The notes beneath the pieces were generated by a model. The model had not been told where the DNA came from. It saw only the letters and a program-made list of their open reading frames with translations, and made no database searches. From a phage: a stretch of DNA of 64,000 nucleotides. The DNA lies in sequence record PZ379075.1. One strand, 5' to 3'. Positions 17,162-17,777 of this stretch are shown here, one piece after another. A program made the translations under genes and the position numbers. Each line of letters begins with the position of its first letter. Position 1 is the stretch's first letter.

Positions 17162-17359
17162 ATGAAAAAGTGGATTGTTCGTGTACATGATAACACGACT
17201 GGAGAGTTAGTAGCTGTAGATTTTGTTAAGACTCGAGAGCACGCACGTAGGGTCAAAAATCAATACAAGTCTACTTTTAGACTTAATAAGGTTACACTAG
17301 GAAAAGCTATCGTGAATAGTGAAGGTGCTTTTTGTGTCAACAGTAAGGTTTATTACTAA
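17162..17359 (+). CDS. small basic protein, paralog 1 of a 3-gene tandem array
   Basis: 65 aa; shares W...F.TR..AR..K ... KV.YY with the next two ORFs; ends in YY. Confidence 0.55.
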   Translation: MKKWIVRVHDNTTGELVAVDFVKTREHARRVKNQYKSTFRLNKVTLGKAIVNSEGAFCVNSKVYY

Positions 17360-17568
17360 TGAGACCAATCACTATGAGAAAATTCTGGTTAGCGAAGATT
17401 AAGTGGGCATCAGGTGGTATGACTATGACTGCACTCCCTACTCGTCAACAAGCTCGAGATTTTAAAAAGACTATGCTTACTGGTGACGTGGTTAATAGTA
17501 TCAGCATCCATAAGGCCAAGGAGTATTCTTCTGGTCGTGTTTATATCAGCGGAAAGGTACATTACTAA
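17359..17568 (+). CDS. small basic protein, paralog 2
   Basis: 69 aa; TAATG overlap; ends in HY. Confidence 0.55.
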   Translation: MRPITMRKFWLAKIKWASGGMTMTALPTRQQARDFKKTMLTGDVVNSISIHKAKEYSSGRVYISGKVHY

Positions 17569-17777
17569 TGAAAAAGATGTGGGCTATTCATGTTGTTTGG
17601 GATCTTGAGCAACACATGAGAAAAGATAACATCAAATTGTTTGACACTCGCAAAGAGGCTCGTATTGCTAAGAAACAGTTGAAGACTCTGGGCACAATAG
17701 TAAAAAGCGCTGACATACATCGCTGGTATGAAGACCCTAACACTGGTTCTTTTATGTCTAAAGTAATTTACTACTGA
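17568..17777 (+). CDS. small basic protein, paralog 3
   Basis: 69 aa; TAATG overlap; ends in YY. Confidence 0.55.
   Translation: MKKMWAIHVVWDLEQHMRKDNIKLFDTRKEARIAKKQLKTLGTIVKSADIHRWYEDPNTGSFMSKVIYY

Follow-up and report, generated by a model that had tools for sequence, protein, structure and literature searches.

In phage phiEco32, genes 71, 70 and 69 lie in a gene cluster of the middle expression class, and a promoter of the phage sigma factor gp36 (consensus tAATGTAtA) has been mapped experimentally upstream of gene 68 (PMC8948821). The three genes are already known: they were deposited with phiEco32 as phi32_71, phi32_70 and phi32_69, each annotated as 'hypothetical protein', they are present in about 100 sequenced relatives, and they are grouped in PHROGs, where PHROG 4939 is a catalogued phage family of 67 positions labelled 'unknown function'. 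A literature search for phi32_69, phi32_70, phi32_71 and phrog_4939 found no paper in the library searched. The BASEL authors reported that Gordonclarkvirinae are remarkably resistant to restriction-modification without a known inhibitor or modification, singled out the locus, and speculated that the nucleotidyltransferase and dcd encoded there underlie an unknown DNA modification (PMC11990801).

Here we analysed a stretch of phage DNA of 64,000 nucleotides (sequence record PZ379075.1; hereafter, the window), in which a model's sequence-only reading had proposed three paralogous small basic proteins encoded in tandem directly 3' of a dCTP deaminase gene. This arrangement was borne out by coordinates, BLASTP, PHROG 4939 membership, isoelectric points and the Pfam DCD match of the upstream gene (Table 1). 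A 1.6-kb region shares 99.9% DNA identity with Shigella phage ShigP1 and 97–99% with many Escherichia phages, and the window phage was identified from tblastn and annotated records as a phiEco32-like Kuravirus of the Gordonclarkvirinae, not a G7C/N4-like phage. Its gp69-type and gp71-type proteins are 98.6% and 90.8% identical to their phiEco32 counterparts, respectively. The phiEco32 synteny dcd-71-70-69-promoter-68-Dps-like is kept: upstream lie genes for primase/helicase (75), polymerase exonuclease subunit (74), nucleotidyltransferase (73) and dCTP deaminase (72), followed by 71, 70, 69, gene 68, Dps-like (67), thioredoxin (65) and ThyX (64).

Table 1. Features of the array and its borders, in window coordinates.
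Feature	Position	Strand	Description
dCTP deaminase, phiEco32 gp72 homologue	16628..17161	+	Pfam DCD E=3.6e-34; phrog_1663
Paralog 1, phiEco32 gp71 type (ORF1)	17162..17359	+	65 aa; pI 10.1; end SKVYY
Gene junction 1	17324..17362	+	...AAGGTxxAxTACTAATGA
Paralog 2, phiEco32 gp70 type (ORF2)	17359..17568	+	69 aa; pI 10.4; end GKVHY
Paralog 2, shorter form	from 17374		64 aa from conserved Met
Gene junction 2, gp70-to-gp69 coupling	17533..17571	+	repeat of junction 1
Paralog 3, phiEco32 gp69 type (ORF3)	17568..17777	+	69 aa; pI 9.8; end KVIYY
AAATGTATA	17802..17810	+	one mismatch to gp36-dependent middle/late promoter element; in the 72-nt gap after the third ORF

Two neighbouring genes carry annotations of their own. 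The nucleotidyltransferase gene upstream of the dCTP deaminase gene (15248–16618; 456 aa, phrog_12715) has a weak Pfam PolyA_pol head match (E=0.002), and its homologue in a metagenomic locus (L009) has a 'faint' precomputed Pfam match to Gad2 (anti-Gabija). The Dps/ferritin-like gene, annotated 'DNA-binding protein' (within 18124–18770; Pfam Ferritin E=2.9e-7), overlaps the 3' end of gene 68.

The genes of the array are tightly joined. The TAA of the dCTP deaminase gene directly abuts the ATG of the gp71-type gene, and its final codons form the sequence AAAGGTG, 5 nt upstream of that ATG. Both inner junctions (gp71/gp70 and gp70/gp69) read TAATG, so that stop and start share one base, and the Lys-Val codons at these junctions provide a Shine-Dalgarno-like AAGG 10 nt upstream of the next ATG. 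The two 39-nt junction sequences are 74% identical at the DNA level, and the gp70-type gene ends in GGA AAG GTx CAy TAC TAA TG in all loci examined. For ORF2, the conserved protein can be taken to begin at the internal methionine, because the PHROG match starts at residue 6 (Met6) and relatives without the MRPIT extension begin at the equivalent Met; the upstream TAATG start is also kept within Kuravirus. Comparison of the window genes with orthologues from other phages by the Nei-Gojobori method gave dN/dS values of 0.09–0.39 for the gp71 type, 0.03–0.48 for the gp70 type and 0.2–0.5 for the gp69 type. Ratios of 0.03–0.5 in all three indicate real coding genes under purifying selection, and the gp71, gp70 and gp69 ORFs are genuine, selectively maintained and translationally coupled paralogs.

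Pairwise BLASTP linked ORF1 to ORF2 (E=2e-5) and ORF2 to ORF3 (E=9e-6), with only E=0.09 between ORF1 and ORF3, and the three paralogs have diverged to about 22–30% mutual identity. A profile search, which the sequence-only reading had suggested as a check, returned full-length matches to PHROG 4939 for all three at E values of about 1e-28 (phrog_4939 positions 1–67 of 67; E=1.2e-27 for ORF1, 3.6e-28 for ORF2 and 1.7e-28 for ORF3). The motif originally proposed, W...F.TR..AR..K...KV.YY, held for W, T, R, A, R, K and the last Y, while the F and the penultimate Tyr proved variable among family members. In our alignment of the paralogs (A3), the invariant columns are W, R and R, and ≥90% of sequences retain T, A, K and the final Y; the best-kept residues across the paralogs are the core Trp, a helix with T-R-x-x-A-R-x-x-K and the terminal Tyr. 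The family alignment shows neither an acidic residue nor a His that all the paralogs conserve. All three window proteins are strongly basic (net charge +6 to +9, pI 9.8–10.4), as are 30/30 diverse family members (pI 9.7–10.9, net charge +5.5 to +11.6).

Scans of the three proteins and 34 family members against Pfam, NCBIfam and PADLOC yielded nothing beyond chance, including no Pfam match at E≤10 for any of the 34 members and no PADLOC match to a known defence or anti-defence protein at E≤10. Sequence profile searches of the PDB gave only noise at E≥0.05 (RIA1, uL22). The array shows no sign of a new kind of system and is an ordinary catalogued ORFan family.

The range of the family is limited to phiEco32-like phages, with orthologues in Kuravirus, Suseptimavirus and relatives. 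A profile search of all 1.84 billion cluster representatives recovered 20 proteins at E≤1e-3, and two indexed searches covering 5.8 billion proteins gave matches solely in phiEco32-like phages, with no domain fusions of family members among them; every genomic context retrieved for the matches was a Gordonclarkvirinae-like contig. Phage-collection records numbered 99 for the gp70 type, 95 for the gp69 type and 65 for the gp71 type, the last being an accessory member found in 65/~99 related records, or about two thirds of genomes. In all fetched loci that covered the dCTP-deaminase end of the region, the gp70 and gp69 genes lay side by side and overlapped, and this translationally coupled pair is near-universal.

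Copy number varies around this pair. An HMM scan of all fetched loci found 2–4 members per genome; the window carries only its three, and some lineages have one or two extra members between thioredoxin and thyX. In EcoN5 (locus positions 2315–2824) and the metagenomic locus L009 (2367–2876), the gp71-type gene is absent and an HNH homing-endonuclease gene separates dcd from the array. The dcd-array boundary looks like a hot spot for gene turnover.

AlphaFold2 models of gp69 and gp70 (pLDDT 86.8 and 92.6, respectively) both show a single domain made of a long beta1, beta2, one helix, a long beta3 and a short beta4 (beta-beta-alpha-beta-beta). The single helix carries the near-invariant T-R-x-x-A-R-x-x-K(K), and the hydrophobic alternation in beta1 of alignment A3 suggests a reading in which the invariant Trp would lie on the core side. 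The C-terminus is ordered in both models, with a beta-bridge at the penultimate residue and a block pLDDT of 83–87. Comparison of the models with solved structures gave no significant match, the weak best neighbours being the PsaD core and RRM-, palm- or ferredoxin-like alpha/beta sandwiches.

The C-terminal hairpin is the variable part of gp69. In several groups of orthologues (P0085/P0089, P0076/P0081/P0083 and P0090/P0091), the N-terminal 50 aa are 70–78% identical to the window protein, and the last 17 aa consist of at least four unrelated hairpin cassettes, one of them gp70-like (10/17 identical). This pattern suggests exchange among paralogs and a specificity-determining surface; the mosaics may have arisen by recombination among the paralogs, perhaps through the conserved junction repeat.

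The sequence-only reading had described all three proteins as ending in an aromatic pair (VYY, VHY and IYY), and these ends were confirmed. Across the family, we counted C-terminal residues in 107 homologues, leaving out two frameshifted sequences (P0051 and P0086). These two gp71-type proteins, from metagenome assemblies, have a C-terminus read out of frame into the next gene (79 aa, ...LPTVRFIINETD...), which probably reflects a frameshift introduced in assembly or sequencing and not a natural fusion. Of the 107 homologues, 105 end in Tyr; the penultimate residue is Y in 76, H in 19, E in 5, F in 4, L in 2 and Q in 1. In two diverged, genuine members the chain ends in Phe-Arg, and at least one of the last two residues is aromatic in all members of the Gordonclarkvirinae type. 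Given the Phe-Arg ends and the variable penultimate position, the signature is better described as an aromatic in the last two residues, usually x-Tyr-COOH. The view of the family as ending in Tyr-Tyr thus stands for the last residue in nearly all members and has to be relaxed for the penultimate one and for the two Phe-Arg ends. Mutual similarity among the three and terminal tyrosines in their homologues, whose absence had been named as grounds for giving up the proposal, were both found.

Part of this terminal motif is also under DNA-level constraint, imposed by the ribosome-binding site of the downstream gene and by the overlap of stop and start. The gp70 type, which always uses GGA AAG GTx, fits such an RBS-encoding idea. 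We rejected the stronger version, that KV.YY is kept purely as the ribosome-binding site of the next gene: the last gene of the array retains K-V-x-Y-Y with other codons (AAA GTA) and without a coupled downstream gene, which points to constraint at the protein level too.

At the protein level, the terminal aromatic with its free carboxylate could act as a docking peg that enters a pocket of a replication protein, or as a modification site. The C-terminal Phe of T7 gp2.5 and gp4, and the SSB tail, insert into replication-protein pockets in this manner, and RimK-type enzymes modify protein C-termini; in the modification variant, the terminal aromatic might be the substrate end for a phage ATP-grasp (RimK-like) ligase. 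The near-universal terminal Tyr, the aromatic within the last two residues of every Gordonclarkvirinae-type member and co-transcription with primase/helicase and the polymerase exonuclease subunit are all compatible with such a role. So is the presence in relatives, about 5 kb upstream of the array, of genes for an ATP-grasp 'S6 glutaminyl transferase' and a gamma-glutamyl cyclotransferase. However, the tails of T7 gp2.5 and SSB are acidic and disordered, whereas the tail here is basic or neutral (S-K-V-x-Y) and predicted to be ordered, so that the terminal aromatic is shared and the acidic disordered tail is absent. The C-terminal Glu that is the target of RimK and of tubulin tyrosine ligase is also absent, two members end in Phe-Arg, a remote member in Salmonella phage 7-11 has four residues past its Tyr, and the DNA-level constraint accounts for part of the motif. 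We consider a peg or modification site improbable, and the modelled C-terminus is more in keeping with a structural role than with a flexible tail for modification.

As a separate observation, the ATP-grasp gene in the Bas90 locus (24–2143), where it lies with the gamma-glutamyl cyclotransferase gene, is annotated as 'ribosomal protein S6 glutaminyl transferase' (RimK-like). Our analysis of the loci found no link between the RimK-like gene and the three small proteins.

Downstream of the third ORF, the candidate promoter element AAATGTATA corresponds in place to the mapped gene-68 promoter. One-mismatch matches to the element occur window-wide no more often than expected by chance (18 found versus 18.8 expected), and the assignment is therefore based on the location of the element and on published work. 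The intergenic sequence between the third ORF and gene 68 is conserved across genera. The position of the gene-68 promoter, together with the published mapping, indicates that the upstream middle-phase transcription unit ends with the three genes. Proteomics of SU10 lysate detected gp68, the Dps-like gp67, thioredoxin and the nucleotidyltransferase; gp71, gp70 and gp69 were not detected in it, a result that is uninformative for tiny basic proteins.

The same gap contains a predicted RNA hairpin (17793–17851; MFE -20 kcal/mol, z = -3.05) that pairs GAUAACUCUC with GAGAGAGUUAU. Its first arm abuts the gene-68 promoter element on the 5' side, and the gene-68 Shine-Dalgarno sequence and AUG (at 17850) form the other arm. 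On read-through mRNA from the three small genes, the modelled hairpin would mask the gene-68 ribosome-binding site, and transcripts begun at the gene-68 promoter would be without its 5' arm. An Rfam scan of window positions 15000–20000 returned no RNA family. The sole strong terminator-like hairpin nearby (18742–18770; 11 pairs, 7 G-C) lies 3' of the Dps-like gene.

Several identities suggested by size, residues or gene neighbourhood were weighed against the profile and the predicted fold. YoeB ends in His-Tyr, and RelE catalysis involves Lys, Arg and Tyr; the HY-COOH end of gp70 and the conserved R/R/K/Y set give the family a likeness to such RelE/YoeB-type small RNases that is superficial only. 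Alignment of the family profile by hhalign gave probabilities of 0.4% for Escherichia coli YoeB and 0.2% for RelE, the order of strands and helix differs, and these proteins are without an acidic or His residue conserved across the paralogs. An mRNA interferase is essentially refuted on profile and fold, and we give it next to no credence. The YegP/DUF1508 repeat (beta-beta-beta-alpha) was likewise rejected (hhalign 0.3%; no Pfam match among the 34 members at E≤10), as were ubiquitin-like beta-grasp carriers (ThiS/MoaD), for which a beta-grasp fold together with a C-terminal Gly-Gly was looked for and not found.

Ugi and p56 are acidic DNA mimics, and p56 is a phage inhibitor of uracil-DNA glycosylase. 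Proteins of this type, or other DNA mimics, would protect a dU-containing genome, and the array adjoins dCTP deaminase, a proposed route to such a genome; the BASEL authors have speculated on dU-DNA in these phages (PMC11990801). In the Foldseek PDB list, p56 appeared at rank 48 with an E value of 1.5, a structural match that is not significant. The phage encodes ThyX and hence makes dTMP. The pI of about 10 here also stands against the acidity of Ugi and p56, and DNA-mimic inhibitors as a group (Ugi, p56, Ocr-like) can be set aside, the acidic surface being replaced by a pI of 9.7–10.9 in 30/30 members. We regard inhibition of uracil-DNA glycosylase as exceedingly unlikely.

Our tentative prediction, from sequence and context, is that gp71, gp70 and gp69 are small nucleic-acid-binding accessory proteins that form hetero-oligomers during the replication phase, which we consider a possible reading and well short of an established one. 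It draws on the uniform basicity, the conserved helix, Trp and Tyr, the operon coupling and the gp69 hairpin cassettes. The proteins would bind a polyanion, most likely DNA or RNA, and would be made together with the replication and nucleotide-metabolism enzymes. At low confidence, polyanion binding is suggested by the high pI (9.7–10.9), by the invariance of W, R and R at about 25% identity and by the weak RRM-, palm- or ferredoxin-like neighbours. Against nucleic acid as the ligand, an acidic protein or the ribosome would be just as plausible a partner for proteins of such basic charge.

Gene order and coupling suggest that gp70 and gp69, coupled 1:1, probably form one hetero-oligomer, in which gp71 would be a third subunit, or a variant, that is optional; the adjacency of the gp70 and gp69 types and their similar record counts (99 and 95, with only 65 for the gp71 type) lend this low-confidence support. 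Within each subunit, the Arg/Arg/Lys stripe of the helix may contact phosphates and the variable beta3-beta4 hairpin may set specificity. On the sheet, the last aromatic residue would serve as a structural plug and not as a modification site, its free carboxylate possibly paired with the basic helix.

A close rival, which we still rate as somewhat unlikely, assigns the three proteins to host takeover or anti-defence, as binders that would modulate either a host factor or an anti-phage defence. On this view, a variable beta3-beta4 hairpin carried by the conserved scaffold would recognise target variants, and the expansion of paralogs would reflect an arms race. The two to four copies per genome, with extra copies beside thyX in some lineages, speak for this modulator role, as do the absence of the gp71 type from about one third of genomes, the dN/dS values of up to 0.4–0.5 in some comparisons and the gp69 orthologues, with their conserved N-terminal 50 aa and at least four C-terminal 17-aa cassettes. 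Copy number and swapped cassettes look like an arms-race family and count against a housekeeping replication factor. The published restriction resistance of Gordonclarkvirinae, with its pointer to the array locus, is a further point in favour (PMC11990801). Against modulation, PADLOC gave no match at E≤10, and the genes lie in the middle replication operon, not in an early host-takeover cluster. Their uniform basicity sets the proteins apart from DNA-mimic anti-restriction proteins, which are acidic, and gp70 and gp69 are conserved across genera under purifying selection.

A bolder version of the nucleic-acid-binding reading would make gp70 and gp69, with or without gp71, a new class of hetero-oligomeric factors, small and basic, that coat DNA or bind its ends, shield replicating phage DNA from host nucleases and so explain the restriction resistance of Gordonclarkvirinae; we hold this to be highly improbable. 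The swappable C-terminal hairpin would here tune specificity, and the carboxylate of the terminal Tyr would lock the fold. The gp70/gp69 pair would matter if it is a true replication accessory factor, and would be more important if it supplied the missing anti-restriction activity of these E. coli phages, which are used in therapy. To the existing catalogue entries, the present analysis adds explicit paralogy, the coupled pair, the restriction of the family to one lineage, a confidently modelled, unmatched small alpha/beta fold, uniform basicity, the conservation of the last Tyr and the gp69 cassettes.

Remote relatives occur in 7-11-like phages. In Salmonella phage 7-11 (NC_015938), an unannotated 73-aa ORF on the minus strand (40948–41166), between gp054 and gp055 and overlapping the 3' end of gp055, is a remote family member (E=6e-6 among 755 ORFs). 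It keeps the W...TR.EAR..KK pattern (W...KTRAEARAHKK), but it is a single copy in another gene neighbourhood and its C-terminal end, VYTYKKVR, continues past Tyr with KKVR. Proteins of Salmonella phage SE131, Cronobacter phages GAP52 and CsaP_009 and Aeromonas phage LAh_8 have the same predicted fold (BFVD matches with TM 0.6–0.72 and E values of 5e-4 to 1e-2). All of these relatives are uncharacterised proteins.

Among characterised systems, the comparison that we draw is with HU alpha/beta, IHF alpha/beta and SPO1 TF1. The window family has no Pfam match and its beta-beta-alpha-beta-beta topology differs from theirs, so that there is no relationship in sequence or fold and the analogy is functional only. 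Like those proteins, the members of the array are small, basic and diverged paralogs, and gp70 and gp69, which are encoded as a pair, may, to judge from their charge, coupling and context, likewise act as a hetero-oligomer.
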